In this document: positions 8,426-46,217 of the stretch, piece by piece | Layout of the letters: each line of letters opens with the position of its first letter | How positions within the stretch are numbered: position 1 is the stretch's first letter | From: Dehalococcoidia bacterium | GTDB taxonomy: Bacteria; Chloroflexota; Dehalococcoidia; UBA2979 | Length of the DNA: 64,000 bases | Assembly: GCA_965262725.1 (NCBI GenBank) | Contig: OZ253555.1 | Span: forward strand, 1,408,001 to 1,472,000 | Reading direction: 5' to 3' | Program-made: the position numbers and the translations under genes | The notes under the pieces: generated by a model | Database searches by the model: none | Seen by the model: only the letters and a program-made list of their open reading frames with translations | What the model was told of the DNA's origin: nothing

Positions 8426-9605
8426 CTAGTGTCCTGATTCGTAATAGCGACAGATAACGGGTATGGTGGCACAGCGGGGTTTTGCCCCATGGGGCAGACT
8501 CTGGAGTGTCATGAGCACCCGAATCGGACGGCCGACGGTCGCGATCGTCCTGAGCGACGAGGAGCGTGAGACGCTGGAGCGGTGGGCGCGCCGGCCGACA
8601 TCGGCCCAGGCGCTGGCGCTGCGCTGTCGCATCGTCCTGGCAGCGGCCGAGGGGACATCGAATAAAGCGATCGCCGCGGCGCTCGATTGCCATCCGGTCA
8701 CCGTCGGCAAGTGGCGCCGGCGCTTTGCGCAGGGGCGGCTCGATGGGCTACAGGATGAGCCGCGCCCCGGGGCGCCGCGCACGATCGCCGATGCACAGGT
8801 GGAAGCGGTGATCGTCACGACGCTGGAGGAGCAGCCTCCCAACGCGACGCACTGGTCGACCCGATCGATGGCAGCCGCGGTCGGGATGTCGCAGTCGGCG
8901 ATCTTCAGGATCTGGCGCGCCTTCGGCCTGAAGCCGCACCTCGTGGAGAGCTTCAAGCTGTCGCCCGACCCGCAGTTCATCGACAAGGTGCGCGACGTGG
9001 CCGGGCTCTATCTCAACCCGCCCGACGCGGCGGTTGTGCTGTGCGTGGACGAGAAGACCCAGATCCAGGCACTCGACCGCACCGCGCCGACGGTGCCGAT
9101 GATGCCCGGCGTCCCCGCCCGCCAGACGCACGACTACATCCGTCACGGCACGACGAACCTCTACGCGGCGCTCGATGTCGCCTCGGGATGCGTGATCACG
9201 GAGATGACCCCCCGGCACCGGGCTCGGGAGTTCCAGCAGTTCCTCGCCCTCATCGACCAAAGCGTTCCCCATGAGCTGGCGGTGCATGTCGTGCTCGACA
9301 ACGTCTCCACGCACCGCACGCCCGCCATCCAGCGCTGGCTCCAGCGCCATCCCCGCTTCACCTTCCATTTCACGCCGACCTACAGCTCCTGGATGAACCT
9401 CGTGGAGCGCTGGTTTGCAGAGCTCACCAGCAAGTGGCTCCGGCGCGGCACGCACCATAGCGTCCCTGATCTGATCCGCTCAGTGGAGATGTGGGTCGCC
9501 AGCTGGAACGAGAATCCGAGGCCCTTCATCTGGCACAAGTCCGCGGACCAGATCCTTGACAACCTCGCCGGATATCTAGAGCGCATCCCTGAATCGGGAC
9601 ACTAG
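8426..9605 (+). mobile_element. IS630-family insertion sequence (complete)
   Basis: Ends CTAGTGTCCTGATTC ... GAATCGGGACACTAG are inverted repeats; both ends lie in CTAG. Confidence 0.93.
8511..9605 (+). CDS. IS630-family transposase
   Basis: HTH N-terminus; DDE motifs CVDEK, VLDN, WMNLVERWF. Stop TAG lies in the terminal CTAG. Confidence 0.95.
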   Translation: MSTRIGRPTVAIVLSDEERETLERWARRPTSAQALALRCRIVLAAAEGTSNKAIAAALDCHPVTVGKWRRRFAQGRLDGLQDEPRPGAPRTIADAQVEAVIVTTLEEQPPNATHWSTRSMAAAVGMSQSAIFRIWRAFGLKPHLVESFKLSPDPQFIDKVRDVAGLYLNPPDAAVVLCVDEKTQIQALDRTAPTVPMMPGVPARQTHDYIRHGTTNLYAALDVASGCVITEMTPRHRAREFQQFLALIDQSVPHELAVHVVLDNVSTHRTPAIQRWLQRHPRFTFHFTPTYSSWMNLVERWFAELTSKWLRRGTHHSVPDLIRSVEMWVASWNENPRPFIWHKSADQILDNLAGYLERIPESGH

Positions 9606-14428: not shown

Positions 14429-14684
14429 GCGGGGCTGACGTGATCGCGCCTAACGCTCATGCTGGTCGTGGAGGAGCGAGCATGTGTCGATCGCCAGGGT
14501 CATTGATCCACGCGTCGCCACGGTCATTAGACCACCCGGGACGCCGGTAGGCGGCTTGATATCAGTGAGCGTCTAGTGTCCTGAATTGGAAATGCGATTG
14601 AGATATCCGGTGAGGTTGGTGTGTCCCGAAGTCGAAGGGCGGGTGACGTGATGACGTAACCGGTCTGGAGACATGCTCGTCGTT

Positions 14685-16104
14685 GAGTAGCGTCCCAGCA
14701 AGTGGTGTCACAGGCGGGGAGACGGTCTCCGCAGGGGGACCTACTACCGACCACGGTGCCCATGCAGGTGGACGTAAGAGACCACCGCATCATCCTTCAC
14801 GAAGTTATGACGAACGTGGAGGAGGACGACGGTGGTCAGAGAGAGCGTGGACGTGTTGGAACTGCTCCGCAAGCAGGCATCGGGAGCTGACCTCGATTTC
14901 CTGCGCGAAGCGGTGGCTGTGCTCGCCGAGGCGGTCATGGACCAGGAGGTCTCGGCGCAGGTCGGCGCCGGCTACGGTGAGCGCAGCGAGATGCGCACCA
15001 CCCGGCGCAACGGCTACAGGCAAAGACGCTGGGACACGCGGGTGGGCAGCATCGACCTGCAGATCCCGAAGCTCCGCCAGGGGTCCTACTTCCCGGCGCT
15101 GCTCGAGCCCCGGCGCCGCTCAGAGCGCGCCCTGCTAGCCGTCGTCCAGCAGGCGTACGTGGAGGGCGTCTCCACACGCCGCGTCGACGACCTCGTGCGC
15201 TCGCTCGGCTGCGAGGGCATCTCCAAGAGCCAGGTCTCGCGTATCTGCTCGGAGCTCGACACGGTCGTCACAAGTTTCCTCGGCCGGCCCCTGGACTCCG
15301 GCCCCTACCGATACCTCTGGCTCGACGCGCTCACCCAGCGGGTGCGCGAGGAGGGCCGCATCGCCCAGGTGAGCGTCGTCGTCGCCACCGCGGTCAACGT
15401 GGAGGGGAAGCGCGAGGTGCTGGGCATCGACGTCGGTACCAGCGAGGACGGGGCCTTCTGGCTGGCATTTCTCCGCGGCCTCGTAGCACGAGGGCTCTCC
15501 GGCGTGGAGCTGGTGACCTCCGACGCCCACCAGGGCCTGAGGGGAGCGATCGCGACCGTCTTCGGCGGCGCCTCCTGGCAGCGCTGCCGTACCCACTTCA
15601 TGCGGAACCTGCTCACACGCGTGCCGAAGAGCGCCGAGGCGCTGGTGGCGACGACCGTGCGCACCATCTACCAGCAGCCCTCGGCCTCCGAGGTGCACGC
15701 CCAGCACACGCGGGTCGTGGAGCAGCTCGGTGCGCGCTTCCCGCAGGCCGCGGCGATGCTCGCCGACGCCGCGGAGGAGATCCTGGCGTTCACGGCCTTC
15801 CCGGTGGCGCACTGGCGTCAGGTCTGGTCGAACAACCCCCAGGAGCGCCTCAACAAGGAGATCCGCCGGCGCACCAACGTCGTCGGCATCTTCCCCAACC
15901 GCTCAGCGGTCATCCGGCTCATCGGTGCGGTGCTCTCCGAGCAGCACGACGAGTGGGCCGTGGGGCGGCGCTACATGACGATGATGACGCTGCTCGCCCC
16001 GCCGGGGAGTGAGCTCACGCCGGGCAAGGAGGTGCTGCTGCAGGCTGCCGGCTAAGAACTGATAAGGATGGTGCGCAGTGACACCACTTGCCGGGACGTG
16101 ACCC
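14685..16104 (+). mobile_element. IS256-family insertion sequence
   Basis: 27-nt imperfect TIRs GAGTAGCGTCCCAGCAAGTGGTGTCAC / GTGACACCACTTGCCGGGACGTGACCC; GTCGTT duplicated on both sides; absent from intron copy 2. Confidence 0.92.
14832..16055 (+). CDS. IS256-family transposase
   Basis: RNGYRQR, GVSTRRV, YLWLDA, SDAHQGL, WQRCRTHF, SNNPQERLNKEIRRR. Confidence 0.95.
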   Translation: MVRESVDVLELLRKQASGADLDFLREAVAVLAEAVMDQEVSAQVGAGYGERSEMRTTRRNGYRQRRWDTRVGSIDLQIPKLRQGSYFPALLEPRRRSERALLAVVQQAYVEGVSTRRVDDLVRSLGCEGISKSQVSRICSELDTVVTSFLGRPLDSGPYRYLWLDALTQRVREEGRIAQVSVVVATAVNVEGKREVLGIDVGTSEDGAFWLAFLRGLVARGLSGVELVTSDAHQGLRGAIATVFGGASWQRCRTHFMRNLLTRVPKSAEALVATTVRTIYQQPSASEVHAQHTRVVEQLGARFPQAAAMLADAAEEILAFTAFPVAHWRQVWSNNPQERLNKEIRRRTNVVGIFPNRSAVIRLIGAVLSEQHDEWAVGRRYMTMMTLLAPPGSELTPGKEVLLQAAG

Positions 16105-16616
16105 GTCGTTGCCAGCCGGTGCGAGTCCGGCACGGGTAACTGTCAGGAGGCCCGTTAGCAGGTCGGCGGCGCGGACGGGAAACGGTCCACGTCGAAGCCC
16201 GACGTCAAGAGCCCTATCAGGGGGAGCAACCAAGCGGTCCGCAGCATCAAGCGAAGCCTGCCGCGTCGTTAACGGATAGTGGAGGAGCCGAGCCCGGCAA
16301 TTCAGGGCGAAGGCCATGGACGAGGTGAAGATCCTGAATGCGCGTTGCGCTGCAGCCTCAAGGAACCTCCCGGCGTAAGGGGCGTGGAACGTTTGGAAGG
16401 TAGCGACGGGAACGGGAGAAGCCCTCCCCGGCCCGGCACCCTGCGAGATGGTGTCGGAGCGAGGTGCCCTATAACCGGTCAAAGCCGGGAAGTGGGCAGC
16501 TAGCCGGAAGGGTGACGGAGGGGGTCGTAGTACCGCTTGAGCCGGACGGACAACACAACCGCCGGTGATGGGAAGGACCCCTGCTTTGCTCACGCGTGGG
16601 GAGTAGGGATGAATCG

Positions 16617-18816
16617 GTGAGTGCCCAAGCGGCTAACTCCATCCAAGACAAGGTCCGAACACTACAACGCACGCTTTACCGGGCGGCCAAGGCCGACCCC
16701 AATAGACGCTTTCATGCGCTCTACGACAAGGTTTATCGCAGAGACATTCTGGAGCGCGCGTGGGAGCAGGTGCGTCGCAATCGCGGCGCAGCCGGTATCG
16801 ACGGCGTCACGCTCGCCGAGGTCGAGCGCTACGGCGTGGAGCGCCTGCTGGATGAACTGGCCACGGAACTGAAGGAGGGAAGATACCGGGTGCAGCCGAG
16901 CCGCCGGGTCTGGATACCCAAGCCCGGTCGGTCGGAAGAGCGCCCGCTCTCGATTCCTTCGGTCCGCGACCGCATCGTGCAGGCGTCGCTGAAGCTCGTG
17001 ACGGAGCCGGTCTTCGAGGCCGACTTCCTGCCATGCAGCTTCGGCTTCCGCCCGAAGCGTTCGGCCCATGACGCCCTGCAGGTCCTCATTGACGAGGCGT
17101 GGCGGGGCAGGCGGTGGGTAGTGGAGACGGACATCGCCTCGTGTTTCGAGTCGATACCGCGTGCGTCCGGAAGTCGAAGGGGTGGTGACGTGATGACGTG
17201 ACCGGTCCGGAGACATGCTCGTTGCTGCCAGCCGGTGAGAGTCCGGCACGGGTAACTGTCAGGAGGCCCGTTAGCAGGTCGGCGGCGTGGACGGGAAACG
17301 GTCTGCGTCGAAGCCCGACGTCAAGAGCCCTATGAGGGGGAGCAAACGTGCGGTCCGCAGCATGACGCGAAGTCTGCCGCGCCGTGAGACTCGCCTGTCT
17401 ATTGACAGGACCAAGGAGGAGCCGAGCCCGGGTGGTCAGGGCGAAGGCCATGGACGAGGTGAAGATCCTGGAATGCAGCCTCAAGAAACCTCCCGGCGTA
17501 TGGGACGTGGAACGTACGGAAGGTAGCGACGGGAACCGGAGAAGCCCTCCCCGGCCCGGCACCCTGTGAGAGGGCGTCGGAGCGAGGCGTCCTATAACCG
17601 GTCAGAGCCGGGAAGTGGACAGCCAGCCGGAAGGGTGGCGGAGGGGGTCGTAGTACCGCTGGAGCCGGACGGACAACATAACCGCCGGTGATGGGAAGGA
17701 CCCCTACTTTGTCCGTGCATGTTGCTGGGGGTGTGGACTGGTGAGTGCCCCTCGGGGCTAGCAACCACTTGGTAGGGTTCGAGGCTCTCCGCACATGCTG
17801 TACCGGCTGGCCAAGGCACGACCCACGTTGTGGGGAGCGCTGCATGCCATCTGGTGAAGGGCATCGGTGAGCCGGATGAGGGAGAACCTCACGTCCGGTT
17901 CGATGTGGCAGGGGCTGGAGACGGACGCTGCTATGGCCGTGGAGTTGGGCACCACCGGGAAACCGGCTTGGAACTGATGCGCCACCGCCTACGGCTCGCA
18001 CCGCGCCAGCCCCTGACCCTACACGACCGTCTGATGACGGCCGTCGAGGAACGGATATGCGACCGCAATCTCCTGAAGCTGGTACGGGCGATGCTGCGTG
18101 CCGGTGTGATGGAGTCGGGGGTCGTGCAGCACAGCGCGACGGGTACGCCGCAGGGCGGGGTGATGTCCCCGCTGCTGGCCAATGTCTACCTGCACCGGTT
18201 GGACCGGGACTGGGAGGCGAAGGGTGATGGCGTGCTGGTGCGCTATGCGGATGACCTCGTGGTGCTCTGCCGGAGCCGGGAGGAAGCGGAGCGGGCGTTG
18301 GCCCTGCTGCGTGACCTGCTGGGTGAGCTCGGACTGGAGCTCAAGGCGGAGAAGACGCGCATCGTGCACCTGCGGGAGGGAGGCGAGGGGCTGGAGTTCC
18401 TCGGCTTCGAGCATCGCTGGGTACGTGCGAAGCGCAACAAGAATATCCAGTTCCTCGCACGCTGGCCCTCACGGCGAGCGATGCAGCGGGCGCGGGACCG
18501 CATCCGTGAAATCACGGCGCGGTTGCGTCTGCTGCTGAGTCCCCGGCAGGTCGTGGAGGAAGTCAATCGCTACCTCCGCGGCTGGATGAGCTACTTCCGC
18601 TACGGCAACTCGGCGAGGGCGTTCGACGTCCTGCACTGGTTTGCCATGTGGAGACTCAAACTCTGGCTGGGGAAGCGGTTGCGTTGGCGGCGACGCCATC
18701 GCGGGCACCCGTTTCCCGTCGCCGACCGTCTGGGGCTCATCTCGCTAGCTGGACAGCGCGTCGTGGCACCACGGCCATATCGACCGTGGCGGGGCACCCC
18801 GCATGCCGCCCGGTGA
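16617..18816 (+). CDS. ltrA: Group II intron reverse transcriptase/maturase, split: join(16617..17160,18023..18816), ~445 aa, no endonuclease domain
   Basis: Exon 1 has GAAGIDG, RPLSIPSVRDRIVQ, SFGFRPKRSAHDA and ends TCG ATA CCG C. Exon 2 begins AC GAC CGT and has GTPQGGVMSPLLAN, RYADD, FLGF and domain X. The splice restores FESIPHDRLM in frame. Confidence 0.92.
17161..18022 (+). ncRNA. Group II intron B (inner, ORF-less, 862 nt), copy 1
   Basis: 5' GTGCG; domains I-III homologous to intron A; DIV keeps only ORF remnants; DV GAGCCGGATGAGGGAGAACCTCACGTCCGGTTC; 3' CCCTGACCCTAC. Confidence 0.92.
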
Positions 18817-19124
18817 AGGGCATCGGTGAGCCGGATGAGGGAAAACCTCACGTCCGGTTCGAGGCGGCAGGGGCTGGAGACGGACGATGCTACGGCTGTG
18901 GAGATGGGCGCCACCGGGAAACCGGCCTGGCAATATGCGCCACCGCCTACGGCTCGCACCGCGCCAGCCCCTGACCCTACTCAAGGATCTGGTCGGTGGT
19001 CTTGTGCGAGATGAAGCGCATCCGGTGCTCGTTCCAGTTGCGACCCAAGCCTCCACTGGGCGGACCAAGCCTGCGAGGCTCGGTGCGATTGTTTTCAGCA
19101 TTTGCAACTCGGGACACTAGCGCG

Positions 19125-19898
19125 TCAATCACCTCCCGTCTGCGCCTCGAGCAGGGCGCGGTGCGGCGAGAGCCGCTGGCGGTAGCTATCGCCCTCGATC
19201 ACGATCTGGTAGCTGGCGTTGGCGAGGCGGTCGAGGGCGCTGTTGCCGAGGATCGGGTCGTCGAAGAGACCCAGCCATTCCTCCACGGCGCGGTTCGAGG
19301 TGATGACGAAGCTGGAGCTGCGGTGGCGCCCGATGACCAGCTCGTAGAGGTCGATGGACTGCTGCGCGCTGAGGCGATGGAGCCCGAGGTCGTCGAGGAT
19401 GAGCAGGTCGGGGGCGAGGAAGCTTCGGAAGACCTTCTCGGCCGAGTGGTCGACGCGGGCCTGCGCCATCTCGCGGAAGTAGTGGTCGGCCGGGGCGAAG
19501 CGGACGCTGCGTCCGGAGCGGACGGCTGAGTAGCCGAGCGCCTGGGCTAAGAAGCTCTTGCCGACGCCGACGGGGCCGACGAGCAGGACGTGCTCGCGGC
19601 GGTCGAGGAAGTGCAGCGAGAAGGCGGCGTCGAGCAGGCGGCGGTCGAGCCGGATGGCGGCCGCCCAGTCGAAGTCCTCGAGGCGGCAGAGCTGCTCGAA
19701 GCCGGCCTGGCGCAGGCGCAGCTCCAACCGCCCGTGGTCGCGGCGGCTCACCTCGTCGACGAGCAGGATCTGCAGGAAGTCCGCGTAGTCGAGGTGGTCG
19801 CGCCGCGCGAGGGCGATGCGCTCGGGCAGGGTGTCGAGCATACGGCCGAGCTTGAGGCGCTTGAGCAGCGGGCGGAGGTCTGAGGTGGTGGCGGTCAT
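19125..19898 (-). CDS. istB: IS21 helper ATPase IstB
   Basis: LEDFDW, Walker A GPVGVGKS, LLILDDLG, ITSN, LDRL; ATGA overlap with istA. Confidence 0.93.
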   Translation of the reverse strand: MTATTSDLRPLLKRLKLGRMLDTLPERIALARRDHLDYADFLQILLVDEVSRRDHGRLELRLRQAGFEQLCRLEDFDWAAAIRLDRRLLDAAFSLHFLDRREHVLLVGPVGVGKSFLAQALGYSAVRSGRSVRFAPADHYFREMAQARVDHSAEKVFRSFLAPDLLILDDLGLHRLSAQQSIDLYELVIGRHRSSSFVITSNRAVEEWLGLFDDPILGNSALDRLANASYQIVIEGDSYRQRLSPHRALLEAQTGGD

Positions 19899-38379: not shown

Positions 38380-40505
38380 GTCGTTCCCTTCGCACTCGCG
38401 AGGCGGCAGGGCCGCTCGCCCTCCCCGAAGGGTAGTCGCCCCCCGCCGAGGCGGGGTGCCGCTGCCGCGCGAACGGCTCCCCGGAGCCCGCGCGTCGGTG
38501 GAGGTCGGGCGCGGCCACGGGGGATCTGCCGGCGTGCGTGGGCCCCGGCGCCACTCCCCTCCGGCGCGCCGGGACGCGCGTGAACTTCGGAGCCCGAACC
38601 GCCCCCGGTGCGCGCGTCGGCAACGCGACCGCGACGACGGCGCCGCGAGGCGGCCGTCCTGCCGGGGACGTGGGCGTCGAGGGGGGCCTGCAGCTCCTCG
38701 TGGCGCGGCCCCCGCTCGGGGCAGGGGAGACGCGACAGCGTCGGGGCGATCCCGACATCGCGCCCGCGAGGAAGGCGCCGGGGGCCGTGCGACCGCCTCC
38801 TCGACATGGAGCAGGGCGCCGGCCGCGCGGTCCGGCCGTACCCGCGGGTCGCCGTGATCGCCCCTCCCGCGAACCGCAGCCGCTGCCTCGTGCAGGCGCG
38901 ACCCGGGTCGGGCGGCGTCGCTCCCGGCGCGGGGCCGGCTCAGTCCGCGGCGCTCGTCCCGCCCGGGCAGCTGACGGCGACCGACCGGCCGGTGACGGCG
39001 TACGCCACGACCGGCGATGAAGGGCACGTGTCCGGCACGCCGGCCTCCGCGCTCCGCAACCCGGCCACGTGGCGAGGCCTCGATCGCGAGGCGTACGGTG
39101 GCCCCGTGTAGCCGGGGAACGGGCCGTGGCATGGCGCTCATTGCGAGCATCTGCGATCGCACCACCGGGCGGCCGCTCACCTGCGTGGCGGACGGCGGCA
39201 TCGCCGCGCCGTCTGCCACTACAACCGTCCCGCGCGACGTGGCGCGGCTCCGGCGCCGCCGGCCGCGGACCGTGGAGGTGATCGGCGGCATCCCGCGCCC
39301 GGGCATCGCCACGATGGCGACGGCGCGCTTCACGGCGCGGCTCGGGAGCGATCCCGACCTCTGCATCGAGGGCGTGGCGCCGTACGTGCGCGACGGCGGC
39401 TACCCGATCGGTCCGCCGCCGCCGGAGCCATCCACCGAGGCGAGACCGCCAGCGTCTCCTCGCGCTCGAACGCCCCCGGTCCAGGGGGGCGACCGCCGCC
39501 GTTGACCCGCATAGCGCGGGAGAGCCCCGCACCCGGACGGTGCCGGGAGCGAGGCGCGCCTCGAGCGGCGCGGGGGCATCTCCTCGCGTCGCCGGCCCGG
39601 GCGGAGGACGCCGTCGGGTCGCGCGGCCCGCCCGCCGCAGGCCGTGGCGGACACGCGTGCTTCAACGTGCGGGTCGCCGGGGACCGGACCCGCGGGCGGT
39701 CGACGGCGAACTCCCGGAGGACGGCCTCGCCGCCCGCGCTGACGACGGCGCCGCCCGATGCTCGCCCGGCCCGCGGGACCGTCGCCGGGGACGCAGGCGC
39801 CGACCCGGGCGCGGAGGCTGCCCTCGCGGCCGGGTCGTGGCCGGGAACCGGCGGAGCCGTCGCGAAGAGGTCGGGACGAGGCTCCGACGCGCCCACCGCT
39901 CGAGTGGGCGCCGGAGCGGGAGCAGCAGGGCGCGCTCGCAAGAGCGGCGCGCCGGACGGGAGCTCGGGGAGCATCGCCGGATGCGGCGGTGTTCCCTGCC
40001 GCCGTGATGGGCGCGGCGTGAACGTGGAGTATCGGACCACGGCCTCGGGCGCAGTACCGAGGATCGACCTGAGCACCCGCACGCTGATCCGAACCGCGGA
40101 CAGCGCCGGAAGCGGAACGTGGTGCCCACGAGACGAGGCCGAACGGGCGGGAGTGGTGCCCGGCGTGACTCGCGTACCGACGGGGGATCGGTTGCGCGCG
40201 TGTACGGAAAAAGAACATATGATCCGCGCTCAAATCCTGCTCACGATCCGCTCCGACGCTACTCACACGCCAGGGACGCCGCATGTTGCCTGGTGCCGCT
40301 GCGGGTCGACACCGGCGACCTGCTGACGCCTCGGACACGCGAGCAGGAGCGGGCCTCCGGCCGCGTGATTGTCCTCTGAGCAATCCCTGAGCACGCCGGT
40401 TCGTAGGGTCCGTCGCGCAACACGTGCGTTTGTCGGTATCGCCGCTCCGGAGGAGCAGAGAAACCGACGCGGAGCGCTCATCCGGGACACCCGCGGCAGG
40501 CGGGG

Positions 40506-40919
40506 TGTCGATCGCCAGGGTCATTGAGCCACGCGTCGCCACGGTCATTGGACCACCCGGGACGCCGGTAGGCGGCTTGATATCAGTGAGCGTCTAGCGC
40601 GTCAATCACCTCCCGTCTGCGCCTCGAGCAGGGCGCGGTGCGGCGAGAGCCGCTGGCGGTAGCTATCGCCCTCGATCACGATCTGGTAGCTGGCGTTGGC
40701 GAGGCGGTCGAGGGCGCTGTTGCCGAGGATCGGGTCGTCGAAGAGACCCAGCCATTCCTCCACGGCGCGGTTCGAGGTGATGACGAAGCTGGAGCTGCGG
40801 TGGCGCCCGATGACCAGCTCGTAGAGGTCGATGGACTGCTGCGCGCTGAGGCGATGGAGCCCGAGGTCGTCGAGGATGAGCAGGTCGGGCGCGAGGAAGC
40901 TTCGGAAGACCTTCTCGGC
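40506..40919 (-). mobile_element. Truncated second copy of the IS21 element (right end + istB 3' part)
   Basis: Near-identical to 14485-14576 + 19121-19442, with a single unoccupied CTAG. Confidence 0.9.
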
Positions 40920-42884: not shown

Positions 42885-43189
42885 CTAGTGTCCCGAGTTG
42901 CAAATGCTGAAAACAATCGCACCGAGCCTCGCAGGCCTGGTCCGCTCAGTGGAGGCTTGGGTCGCAACTGGAAACGAGCACCGGAGGCGCTTCATCTGGC
43001 ACAAGTCCGCGGACCAGATCTTTGAGTAGGGTCAGGGGCTGGCGCGGTGCGAGCCGTAGGCGGTGGCGCATATTGCCAGGCCGGTTTCCCGGTGGCGCCC
43101 ATCTCCACAGCCGTAGCATCGTCCGTCTCCAGCCCCTGCCGCCTCGAACCGGACGTGAGGTTTTCCCTCATCCGGCTCACCGATGCCCT

Positions 43190-45389
43190 TCACCGGGCGG
43201 CATGCGGGGTGCCCCGCCACGGTCGATATGGCCGTGGTGCCACGACGCGCTGTCCAGCTAGCGAGATGAGCCCCAGACGGTCGGCGACGGGAAACGGGTG
43301 CCCGCGATGGCGTCGCCGCCAACGCAACCGCTTCCCCAGCCAGAGTTTGAGTCTCCACATGGCAAACCAGTGCAGGACGTCGAACGCCCTCGCCGAGTTG
43401 CCGTAGCGGAAGTAGCTCATCCAGCCGCGGAGGTAGCGATTGACTTCCTCCACGACCTGCCGGGGACTCAGCAGCAGACGCAACCGCGCCGTGATTTCAC
43501 GGATGCGGTCCCGCGCCCGCTGCATCGCTCGCCGTGAGGGCCAGCGTGCGAGGAACTGGATATTCTTGTTGCGCTTCGCACGTACCCAGCGATGCTCGAA
43601 GCCGAGGAACTCCAGCCCCTCGCCTCCCTCCCGCAGGTGCACGATGCGCGTCTTCTCCGCCTTGAGCTCCAGTCCGAGCTCACCCAGCAGGTCACGCAGC
43701 AGGGCCAACGCCCGCTCCGCTTCCTCCCGGCTCCGGCAGAGCACCACGAGGTCATCCGCATAGCGCACCAGCACGCCATCACCCTTCGCCTCCCAGTCCC
43801 GGTCCAACCGGTGCAGGTAGACATTGGCCAGCAGCGGGGACATCACCCCGCCCTGCGGCGTACCCGTCGCGCTGTGCTGCACGACCCCCGACTCCATCAC
43901 ACCGGCACGCAGCATCGCCCGTACCAGCTTCAGGAGATTGCGGTCGCATATCCGTTCCTCGACGGCCGTCATCAGACGGTCGTGTAGGGTCAGGGGCTGG
44001 CGCGGTGCGAGCCGTAGGCGGTGGCGCATCAGTTCCAAGCCGGTTTCCCGGTGGTGCCCAACTCCACGGCCATAGCAGCGTCCGTCTCCAGCCCCTGCCA
44101 CATCGAACCGGACGTGAGGTTCTCCCTCATCCGGCTCACCGATGCCCTTCACCAGATGGCATGCAGCGCTCCCCACAACGTGGGTCGTGCCTTGGCCAGC
44201 CGGTACAGCATGTGCGGAGAGCCTCGAACCCTACCAAGTGGTTGCTAGCCCCGAGGGGCACTCACCAGTCCACACCCCCAGCAACATGCACGGACAAAGT
44301 AGGGGTCCTTCCCATCACCGGCGGTTATGTTGTCCGTCCGGCTCCAGCGGTACTACGACCCCCTCCGCCACCCTTCCGGCTGGCTGTCCACTTCCCGGCT
44401 CTGACCGGTTATAGGACGCCTCGCTCCGACGCCCTCTCACAGGGTGCCGGGCCGGGGAGGGCTTCTCCGGTTCCCGTCGCTACCTTCCGTACGTTCCACG
44501 TCCCATACGCCGGGAGGTTTCTTGAGGCTGCATTCCAGGATCTTCACCTCGTCCATGGCCTTCGCCCTGACCACCCGGGCTCGGCTCCTCCTTGGTCCTG
44601 TCAATAGACAGGCGAGTCTCACGGCGCGGCAGACTTCGCGTCATGCTGCGGACCGCACGTTTGCTCCCCCTCATAGGGCTCTTGACGTCGGGCTTCGACG
44701 CAGACCGTTTCCCGTCCACGCCGCCGACCTGCTAACGGGCCTCCTGACAGTTACCCGTGCCGGACTCTCACCGGCTGGCAGCAACGAGCATGTCTCCGGA
44801 CCGGTCACGTCATCACGTCACCACCCCTTCGACTTCCGGACGCACGCGGTATCGACTCGAAACACGAGGCGATGTCCGTCTCCACTACCCACCGCCTGCC
44901 CCGCCACGCCTCGTCAATGAGGACCTGCAGGGCGTCATGGGCCGAACGCTTCGGGCGGAAGCCGAAGCTGCATGGCAGGAAGTCGGCCTCGAAGACCGGC
45001 TCCGTCACGAGCTTCAGCGACGCCTGCACGATGCGGTCGCGGACCGAAGGAATCGAGAGCGGGCGCTCTTCCGACCGACCGGGCTTGGGTATCCAGACCC
45101 GGCGGCTCGGCTGCACCCGGTATCTTCCCTCCTTCAGTTCCGTGGCCAGTTCATCCAGCAGGCGCTCCACGCCGTAGCGCTCGACCTCGGCGAGCGTGAC
45201 GCCGTCGATACCGGCTGCGCCGCGATTGCGACGCACCTGCTCCCACGCGCGCTCCAGAATGTCTCTGCGATAAACCTTGTCGTAGAGCGCATGAAAGCGT
45301 CTATTGGGGTCGGCCTTGGCCGCCCGGTAAAGCGTGCGTTGTAGTGTTCGGACCTTGTCTTGGATGGAGTTAGCCGCTTGGGCACTCAC
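43190..45389 (-). CDS. ltrA: Group II intron RT/maturase, split: complement(join(43190..43983,44846..45389))
   Basis: ORF-track translations of both halves are identical to copy 1. Confidence 0.92.
43984..44845 (-). ncRNA. Group II intron B (inner, ORF-less), copy 2
   Basis: Reverse complement of 17161-18022. Confidence 0.92.
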
Positions 45390-46003
45390 CGATTCATCCC
45401 TACTCCCCACGCGTGAGCAAAGCAGGGGTCCTTCCCATCACCGGCGGTTGTGTTGTCCGTCCGGCTCAAGCGGTACTACGACCCCCTCCGTCACCCTTCC
45501 GGCTAGCTGCCCACTTCCCGGCTTTGACCGGTTATAGGGCACCTCGCTCCGACACCATCTCGCAGGGTGCCGGGCCGGGGAGGGCTTCTCCCGTTCCCGT
45601 CGCTACCTTCCAAACGTTCCACGCCCCTTACGCCGGGAGGTTCCTTGAGGCTGCAGCGCAACGCGCATTCAGGATCTTCACCTCGTCCATGGCCTTCGCC
45701 CTGAATTGCCGGGCTCGGCTCCTCCACTATCCGTTAACGACGCGGCAGGCTTCGCTTGATGCTGCGGACCGCTTGGTTGCTCCCCCTGATAGGGCTCTTG
45801 ACGTCGGGCTTCGACGTGGACCGTTTCCCGTCCGCGCCGCCGACCTGCTAACGGGCCTCCTGACAGTTACCCGTGCCGGACTCGCACCGGCTGGCAACGA
45901 CGAGCATGTCTCCAGACCGGTTACGTCATCACGTCACCCGCCCTTCGACTTCGGGACACACCAACCTCACCGGATATCTCAATCGCATTTCCAATTCAGG
46001 ACA

Positions 46004-46187
46004 CTAGGGCTATATGAAATTTTCCATACCAGTGATTACGAAGCTCCTCTGTTTCTTCAGCACCGGCGACGTATTTTGCAACACGCGCACACATTTCTTC
46101 AGGAGTCTCGATTACGTCCCCTGTATCGTGGTTCTTCCGTAGGTAACGCTTTTCGAGTACAGTGCGCGCGTTGTCTGTAAGTTCCAA
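46004..46187 (-). pseudogene. N-terminal fragment of a ribonucleotide reductase (NrdJ-like)
   Basis: MELTDNARTVLEKRYLRK...IETPEEMCARVAKYVA; AT-rich; cut at the CTAG that holds the MITE and IS5. Confidence 0.7.
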
Positions 46188-46217
46188 GTAACCTCTCCCT
46201 CCGATTAACGGAGGTAT

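Follow-up and report, generated by a model that had tools for sequence, protein, structure and literature searches.

Why does a group II intron without an open reading frame (ORF) lie inside the reverse transcriptase (RT) gene of a closely related intron, and did its own guide sequences bring it there? The question is raised by a 64,000-nt stretch of a Dehalococcoidia bacterium genome (assembly GCA_965262725.1, contig OZ253555.1, positions 1,408,001 to 1,472,000 of the forward strand), hereafter called the window, whose coordinates are used throughout unless a genome position is given. In this window, intron A (14619-18980, plus strand) contains an RT gene, and intron B (17161-18022, plus strand; 862 nt), which has no ORF, lies within that gene. 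The reading that we prefer, with a probability of about 0.85, is that A and B form a group II twintron, that the guides of B match the RT gene of its own intron family, and that B is likely copied in trans by the RT of A or of a third intron of the same genome, C.

Intron B interrupts the RT gene of intron A

Both introns show the conserved 5′ end GUGYG (GTGTG in A, GTGCG in B), and both end in ...CCCTAC. Domain I of A matched RF02003 with 95.3 bits at 16113-16249 and that of B with 102.8 bits at 17229-17365, against a gathering score of 49. For domains V and VI, RF00029 (gathering score 40) gave 41.5 bits at 18826-18893 in A, and in B, under a relaxed threshold, a match below the gathering score (37.5 bits, E 1.4e-5, 17867-18022). 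The match in B ends exactly at the last base of the intron, 18022, with an unpaired GA 7-8 nt from the end.

The RT/maturase is encoded by A only. Its first exon lies in the segment 16112-17160, which comprises domain I to IVa of A and matches RF02003 and RVT_1; the ORF is open from 16596, with a likely GTG start at 16617 as judged by eye. The second RT exon lies at 18023-18980, together with domain V and a long domain VI (matches to RVT_1, GIIM and RF00029), and the gene's stop codon is at 18814-18816. Removal of 17161-18022 restores an open 452-aa RT that reads ..ASCFESIP/HDRLMTAVEE.., where the slash marks the insertion site, and shortens A to 2074 nt. The Pfam domain RVT_1 is split by B at profile positions 83/90 (matches at 1-83 and 90-204, with E-values of 2e-21 and 2.3e-11) and is followed downstream by the maturase domain GIIM (E 2.8e-14), whereas no endonuclease family was listed for this protein in the Pfam scan. 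Outside the studied genome, 85 related RT genes cover the site, and all are uninterrupted at it. It is not covered by another four related RT loci, two of which (L055 and L056) show only a local frame problem. A complete inner intron, an outer RT restored upon its removal and the continuity of this RT with 85 relatives together identify the arrangement as a twintron.

In BLAST comparisons the first 551 nt of B share 86% identity with A and the last 197 nt share 89%, and the longest gap-free blocks reach 88-92%. B keeps the region of the RT start, in which GGTGAGTGCCC is identical in A, B and C, and its reading frame is closed by a stop within a few codons. With these remnants of a deleted ORF in B, and with related RT-encoding introns present in the same genome, B is apparently an ORF-deleted derivative of an A-like intron.

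Guide sequences of A and B match their different targets

A sequence-only reading of the window had proposed that the exon-binding sequences EBS1, EBS2 and EBS3 of the two sister introns differ in accordance with their different targets. A script reading the window found its four guide coordinates and both 3′-exon bases to be correct. In A, EBS2 is CGGATA (16273-16278), EBS1 is CAATT (16298-16302) and EBS3 is the A at 16378, whose partner is the T at 18981. The corresponding guides of B are GACTCG (17388-17393), identified by sequence reading and site scoring, GTGGT (17432-17436), identified by the consensus fold and site scoring, and the T at 17501, whose partner is the A at 18023. EBS1 has the same context in both introns, CCGAGCCCGG-NNNNN-CAGGGCGAAG, and EBS3 lies in the motif CGGCGTAAG at 16371-16379 in A and CGGCGTATG at 17494-17502 in B. 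After its EBS2, B has an extra hairpin, CCTGTC-TATT-GACAGG, which A lacks.

The 5′ exon of A ends in ...TATCCGgtgaGGTTG at 14618, 1.5 kb upstream of the span cited in the sequence-only reading, and its 3′ exon opens with T at 18981. Its intron-binding sequences, IBS2 (TATCCG, 14604-14609) and IBS1 (GGTTG, 14614-14618), lie on the plus strand in the end of an IS630-like element, and this flank is common to 12 of 12 A copies in the genome, with TAGCCG in one. The 5′ exon of B ends in ...CGAGTCgatACCGC at 17160 and its 3′ exon opens with A at 18023; the target in the RT gene reads ...CGAGTCGATACCGC/ACGACC..., with IBS2 (CGAGTC, 17147-17152) and IBS1 (ACCGC, 17156-17160) on the plus strand in the codons for ..CFESIP/HD... 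Watson-Crick pairing between EBS2 and IBS2 is complete in A (6/6) and in B (6/6), EBS1 and IBS1 form 5/5 pairs in A (two of them G-U) and 5/5 in B (one G-U), and EBS3 forms a Watson-Crick pair with the +1 base in both. An alignment of A and B further revealed that the guide positions are the largest differences between the two within domain I, which is elsewhere 86-92% identical. These data support the putative guide assignments for both introns.

A consensus fold of the guide-bearing segment was obtained with RNAalifold from 18 diverse sequences. In this fold an outer helix is followed by an unpaired 5′ strand with EBS2 and, in 13 of the 18 sequences (B but not A), by an optional hairpin 3′ of EBS2. 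Next comes a 5-bp helix, each pair of which has changed on both sides in 1-5 sequences. EBS1 then occupies a 9-nt terminal loop on a stem of the form GCCN/NGGC, whose closing pair shows both-sided changes in 8 of 18 sequences. A second hairpin and an unpaired 3′ strand with EBS3 follow, so that the two opposing strands of a single internal loop bear EBS2 and EBS3, respectively. In total, 10 of 25 predicted pairs are maintained through changes on both sides. A placement of the guides in stems, which would have spoken against the sequence-only reading, is not what the fold predicts: all three are unpaired. Exon recognition is predicted from this model to be of the IIB kind, with a single-base EBS3 in an internal loop and not beside EBS1, according to the scheme given in passages of review articles.

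The same guide positions co-vary with exons across the intron family

The third intron, C, co-varies with its exons at the same three guide positions. C shares ~79% identity with B, and the RTs of C and A share 72-89%. Its EBS2, GAGTCC, forms 6/6 pairs with the exon sequence GGACTC at three sites and 5/6 at one, its EBS1, ACCCT, forms 4/5 pairs with (C)GGGT, and its EBS3, an A, pairs with an exon T. The fourth C copy (genome position 1875219) ends directly after the EBS3 motif ..CGGCGTAAG. Past this truncation a GGTGGAAGTCC-like domain I motif is followed by an RT match (1875791-1878229), and this sequence may be another group II intron.

For a wider comparison, a search with the second RT exon yielded six loci in named genomes, belonging to Dehalococcoidia metagenome-assembled genomes (MAGs), a Pseudonocardiaceae MAG and a Frankiaceae MAG, and a five-sequence RT profile yielded 163 relatives on metagenome contigs, 80 of which were kept. 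The introns were located with a domain I profile; matches starting beyond profile position 60 or ending before 400 were dropped, as were seven loci without a recognisable 5′ end or too near a contig end. After removal of duplicates, the set comprised 53 distinct intron/site pairs, A, B and C included. The guide register was set from A, B and C before the family count, and the family alignment was inspected in between. A register with EBS1 one base further 5′, combined with an EBS2 scan over the G-rich hairpin, gave weak signals (4/2000 and 3/300 shuffles) and was rejected.

Among the 53 pairs, EBS1 matched positions -5 to -1 of its own exon with a mean of 3.91 of 5 pairs, compared with 1.91 for the exons of other introns, and at least 4/5 pairs were formed in 41. 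With the exons shuffled among introns 5000 times, neither EBS1 nor EBS2 ever attained the observed pairing; kinship inflates this test, as related introns have related targets, and about 20 different guide/target combinations are represented. The best EBS2 helix, with exon positions -18 to -7 scanned, mostly involved bases 3-7 of the first 11 nt after the conserved GCCGCRYCGT, facing positions -13 to -9. Position by position, -1 to -4 were paired with EBS1 in 42-49 of 53 cases and -9 to -13 with EBS2 in 33-41. The 3′ end could be located for 22 family loci, giving 25 EBS3 cases together with A, B and C. The +1 base paired with EBS3 in 24 of these, with 18 Watson-Crick pairs (A-T, T-A, G-C and C-G all occurring), six G-U pairs, all from one closely related intron type, and one mismatch. 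The proposed co-variation of the sister introns with their own targets is therefore borne out by the pairing and by the family counts, in which the same guide columns vary with the exons throughout.

A plain tally on the related sequences also showed that the base two positions upstream of EBS2 forms a Watson-Crick pair with exon position -14 in 35 of 53 cases (T-A 27, C-G 5, G-C 3). This pair resembles the EBS2a-IBS2a interaction described for IIB1/IIB2 introns in passages of Monachello et al. 2021 (PMC8643678), with the caveat that the -14 base of B may equally extend the EBS2 helix and that the pair in C would be A-G. A T was found at -15 in 29 of 53 family sites.

The guide map of this RF02003-matched family, with EBS1, EBS2, EBS3 and possibly the EBS2a-like pair and a favoured T-15, covers ~50 natural sites. 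A, B and C, which are 79-92% alike and have different guides and homes, constitute a natural three-way retargeting series, material from which targeting rules for gene-targeting tools based on group II introns could be derived.

Copies of B occupy guide-matched sites and fill every A- and C-type RT gene of the genome

The assembly is a single 3.67-Mb contig, in which an exact 40-nt probe located 28 B 5′ ends, the first 40 nt being identical in all. Complete copies are 100% identical by BLAST, apart from one at 99.9%, and three copies are interrupted by insertions (genome positions 294653, 733701 and 1391132). Twelve of the 28 lie in A copies, three in C, one in tandem and 12 elsewhere. The resulting 15 kinds of site were scored against the guides of B in a fixed register, with a maximum of 12 pairs. 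Two kinds, both of them RT-gene sites, scored 12 and are the only ones to do so; five kinds scored 11, two 10, three 9, one 7 and two 6. At least 9/12 pairs are thus reached by 12 of 15 kinds, whereas among 200,000 random genome positions the fractions reaching 12, 11, 10 and 9 were 3.5e-5, 6e-4, 6e-3 and 0.03. EBS1 formed 5/5 pairs at 10 kinds of site and 4/5 at five, EBS2 formed at least 5/6 pairs at nine of 15, the +1 base paired with EBS3 at 12 of 15, and T occurred at -15 in 11 of 15. Flanks unrelated to the guides at the other B copies would have undermined the sequence-only reading; instead, the flanks pair with them. The 12 solo copies have exact intron ends and guide-matched sites, and their flanks are unrelated beyond ~16 nt.

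All A- and C-type RT genes of the genome (15/15) are split by B at residue 188/189, and no empty B home site of this kind exists in the genome. By comparison, 12 A sites are filled and 13 empty, and 3-4 C sites are filled and four empty. The empty A sites keep the intact target TATCCGG[TC]GAGGTTG/TC[AC]A; one of them is at window positions 9559-9574 (minus strand) and 12 are elsewhere. The site of B codes for a conserved RT motif that is nearly invariant in nucleotides among close relatives, reading, for example, TTCGAGTCGATTCCGC/ACGACC in L022. These results support the further claim that B was directed to the RT gene by its guides: the site is the only 12/12 match, it is filled in two diverged RT lineages and none is empty. 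As the flanks of B in A and C differ and the RTs are only 72-89% identical, B must have entered the RT site at least twice.

Copies of A were compared with the intact minus-strand A(B) copy in the window as reference. Five of the 12 differ slightly outside B (four by 1-2 substitutions, one by a 1-nt length change), whereas B equals the reference in 11 and is interrupted by an insertion in the twelfth. Five of the 12 A copies are broken by further insertions. Because A copies differ slightly outside B while B itself matches exactly, this comparison, as in Thermosynechococcus, mildly favours a separate and recent entry of B into A copies that were already dispersed; spread of the A(B) composite as a unit is somewhat less likely. 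In total, the genome holds more than 40 A-, B- and C-type intron copies. RF02003 was matched in only three of 150 other genomes of the same class; two of these matches are weak, one lies at a contig edge, and the family count includes none of them. As far as these copy numbers can tell, this indicates a lineage-specific burst.

The gene context of the solo B sites, taken from ORFs over the reconstructed pre-insertion sequence, is tentative, since a GC-rich genome favours spurious ORFs; some insertions appear to be sense and some antisense, and one lies, again tentatively, at the start of an IS630-type gene. The solo copy at genome position 1524130 lies in the RT gene of a different group II class, whose RT is 38-40% identical to the A/C RT, and it uses another position of the protein, before ..YGFSHGFRPGRSAHDAL...

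Tandem arrangements were also observed. Two B copies lie head-to-tail inside one A copy (genome positions 549500-551223), the metagenome locus L115 has three domain I matches spaced 2150 nt apart, and at L118, L112 and L100 a full intron directly abuts the end or start of another intron. Tandem junctions match the guides poorly (6/12 for B; EBS1 2/5 at L115), so such tandems may arise other than by ordinary homing.

Proposed mobilization of B and alternative explanations

A encodes an RT/maturase without an endonuclease domain and resides in the end of IS630-like elements, and B has retained domains I to VI as well as the segment at the RT start. In the mechanism that we propose, B would enter DNA by reverse splicing guided by EBS1 (-1 to -5), EBS2 (about -9 to -14) and EBS3 (+1), and would most likely depend for its copying on an A- or C-type RT acting in trans. 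Insertion in the presumed domain IV loop need not disturb the ribozyme of A. Since the site is nearly invariant among close relatives, the RT gene would offer a durable home that travels with every helper. We infer that splicing of B takes place in vivo, that its helper is the A/C RT, in line with the sharing of one protein suggested by the sequence-only reading, and that B has stayed mobile. Having no protein of its own, B must rely on one from elsewhere, and the A/C-type RT is the obvious choice for this role because B keeps the RT-start segment and the only other RT class of the genome is 38-40% identical.

A guide match by itself is no proof of adaptation, as any reverse-spliced insertion must match the guides. 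The guides might accordingly be real and B might have entered the RT gene in a single lucky ectopic event, hitch-hiking afterwards with A(B) into IS630 copies and without any adaptation to RT genes. B is present in each of the 12 A copies, and these are almost the same in sequence (0-2 substitutions), as spread of a composite would yield; a group II ribozyme could also still fold around an insert in its domain IV loop. We nevertheless regard this as improbable. The same site is filled in three C-type RT genes with different flanks, whose proteins are 72-89% identical, and B copies are identical while the A and C ribozymes are only ~79% alike, which argues for separate recent insertions; the RT site is also the only 12/12 site among the 15 kinds, and RT sites are all full whereas A has filled only 12 of 25 sites of its own. 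Somewhat less probable again is mobilization of B by the unrelated group II RT class, of which the genome holds ~10 uninterrupted copies. In a tblastn search, 10 loci gave a continuous 379-aa match with 37.7% identity to the A RT (completeness of the ORFs is assumed), and such genes, unlike the A/C RT genes, which are all interrupted, would not need prior splicing of B. Maturases, however, typically serve the intron that encodes them or its close relatives. In the Thermosynechococcus case, passages of PMC2882425 give the helpers as 84-100% identical to each other. B moreover keeps the A-like segment around the RT start, which by analogy would be the binding region of the cognate protein. That B is a dead relic, spread by duplication or recombination of DNA and not by retromobility, seems very unlikely to us. 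Some B copies are themselves broken by other insertions, and its activity is presumed from sequence, but DNA-level spread does not fit solo copies with exact intron boundaries, guide-matched sites and flanks unrelated beyond ~16 nt, and the complete copies, 100% identical by BLAST, indicate a recent burst.

Several observations weigh against the twintron reading with guide-directed targeting and an A/C-type helper. With the register fixed, three of the 15 kinds of B site score no more than 7/12; for two of them EBS2 attains 6/6 only when the register is slid by 1-2 nt, and the remaining one is the tandem junction. Across the family, position -5 is paired in only 20 of 53 cases (15.8 expected), so the fifth EBS1 pair of A and B is not a general rule, and for the related introns L023 and L026 the usual register gives no convincing EBS2 match. 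When the A and B segments were folded as single sequences, the energies were no better than those of shuffled sequences (z 0.55 and 0.47) and the structures disagreed with the consensus fold; these folds were treated as uninformative. The 12 B copies inside A may stem from one insertion and spread of the composite instead of 12 independent events. Every A/C RT gene is interrupted, so the helper presupposes the splicing for which it is normally needed. Finally, no splice junction was found in two RNA-labelled runs (X19 and X20), each of which gave one short contig inside B that is possibly DNA carry-over, and these runs carry no information on splicing.

The interruption of all helper genes raises the question of how RT is ever made. 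As B splits the RT domain, the protein would be made only after B is spliced from the A or C transcript, and with all RT genes interrupted its synthesis would presuppose some self-splicing or pre-existing RT. A speculative extension of the preferred reading, which we consider rather doubtful, is that B is a hyperparasite that has locked its own helper by filling all 15 of 15 A/C RT genes. If so, RT synthesis would need splicing of B, and efficient splicing of B normally needs RT, creating a self-sustaining on/off state in which an RT-positive cell keeps making RT and a cell without RT restarts only by rare self-splicing. Such a lock might also account for the fact that no more than 12 of the 25 A target sites are filled.

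In one contig from run X7 (labelled 'DNA?', from another study; depth 175), position 17159 is joined to 18022, with exactly the 862 nt of B left out. This hints weakly at a B-free A-type RT in a related population; the shorter side of the contig is 29 letters, below the 30-31 letters under which the search tool itself advises caution, and it was not used as support.

Comparison with known nested introns

The mechanism is ordinary for group II introns, and A(B) is not a new kind of element but a new example of a known twintron arrangement. Its closest counterparts are the TeI3/TeI4 introns of Thermosynechococcus elongatus, for which passages of Mohr et al. 2010 (PMC2882425) report experimental trans-mobilization by 'driver' proteins. 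According to the same passages, one lineage has proliferated there as well (28 copies, compared with 28 B 5′ ends, 12 A and four C here), ORF-less derivatives arose from a single ORF deletion with remnants at both ends, and families with different EBS match different sites. An ORF-less family has likewise inserted at a conserved site in ORF-bearing relatives to form twintrons, other members lie in insertion sequences, and identical inner introns sit within outer introns that vary slightly (PMC2882425). The systems differ in that the inner intron of Thermosynechococcus lies between the first two ATGs, so that translation from the second ATG can yield protein independently of splicing, and in that two introns keep continuous ORFs there (PMC2882425), whereas no uninterrupted A/C-type RT gene is present here. 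Mobility was demonstrated by experiment in that system (PMC2882425) and is predicted here from genomic traces. Furthermore, B splits the RT domain, the RT here is without an endonuclease domain, and the host is a member of Dehalococcoidia. The position of B within the RT domain is a sharper version of the Thermosynechococcus arrangement.

Nested introns are also known from Methanosarcina acetivorans, the subject of a 2003 study by Dai and Zimmerly whose title reportedly speaks of homing into related intron ORFs. Passages of a review (PMC4424553) describe ORF-less and RT-encoding introns that home site-specifically into related introns, which serve as a lasting target outside the genes of the host. 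In Methanosarcina as many as five introns are nested, with turnover by recombination, whereas we found one level of nesting and one head-to-tail B-B tandem.

RmInt1-like introns make up bacterial class D. The RmInt1 intron of Sinorhizobium resembles the present family in its endonuclease-less RT, in IBS2 at -9 to -13, in a single-base IBS3 at +1, in a favoured T-15 and in a natural home in an insertion sequence (passages of PMC4075523). Its relatives are reported to cooperate through each other's proteins (PMC4075523 and PMC4615759). IBS1, however, extends from -1 to -7 in RmInt1 according to the passages of PMC4075523, compared with a core of -1 to -4 or -5 here, and the G at +4 given there is absent from the home sites of A and B. 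The best 30 plasmid matches to the RT come from Streptomyces, Rhodococcus and allies, with 41-63% identity; Sinorhizobium is absent from these 30, and 125 Sinorhizobium records match more weakly. We assign the studied family neither to the RmInt1 class nor to another lettered bacterial class; among the plasmid matches listed, its closest RTs are actinobacterial.

Nested elements around the twintron

The twintron is part of a nested series at 14484-19416, in which a short IS630-like element carries A, and A carries both B and an IS256-type element that splits A in the window. The short IS630-like element has the ends CTAGTGTCC...GGGACACTAG and measures ~186 bp without the intron. The composite was inserted at CTAG in the end of an IS21-like element, an uninterrupted twin of which lies at 40505-40893. 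Short (~186 bp) and long IS630-like copies occur at both filled and empty A sites. The first 67 nt of A (GTGTG..., 14619-14685, plus strand), delimited by repeat pairs and by reading the sequence, are the same as in the intact minus-strand copy. They are followed by the IS256-family element (14686-16103, plus strand), whose ORF at 14832-16055 matches Pfam Transposase_mut (E 9.6e-132). It is flanked by an 8-bp target duplication, CGTCGTTG, at 14678-14685 and 16104-16111, and A continues from 16112.

The intact A(B) twintron lies at 43026-45961 on the minus strand (2936 nt, with B at 43984-44845), lacks the IS256-family element and forms an inverted repeat with the first copy that is 100% complementary over 2930 nt. 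The two copies have identical introns and identical 46-nt 5′ flanks. Their 3′ flanks (18981-19033 and 42973-43025) show, by eye, ~9 differences and one indel in the first ~50 nt, and the next 89 nt are 98% alike. The host sequence of the second copy, at 46010-46200 on the minus strand, is lower in GC and, in a translation made by eye, resembles the start of a B12-dependent ribonucleotide reductase.

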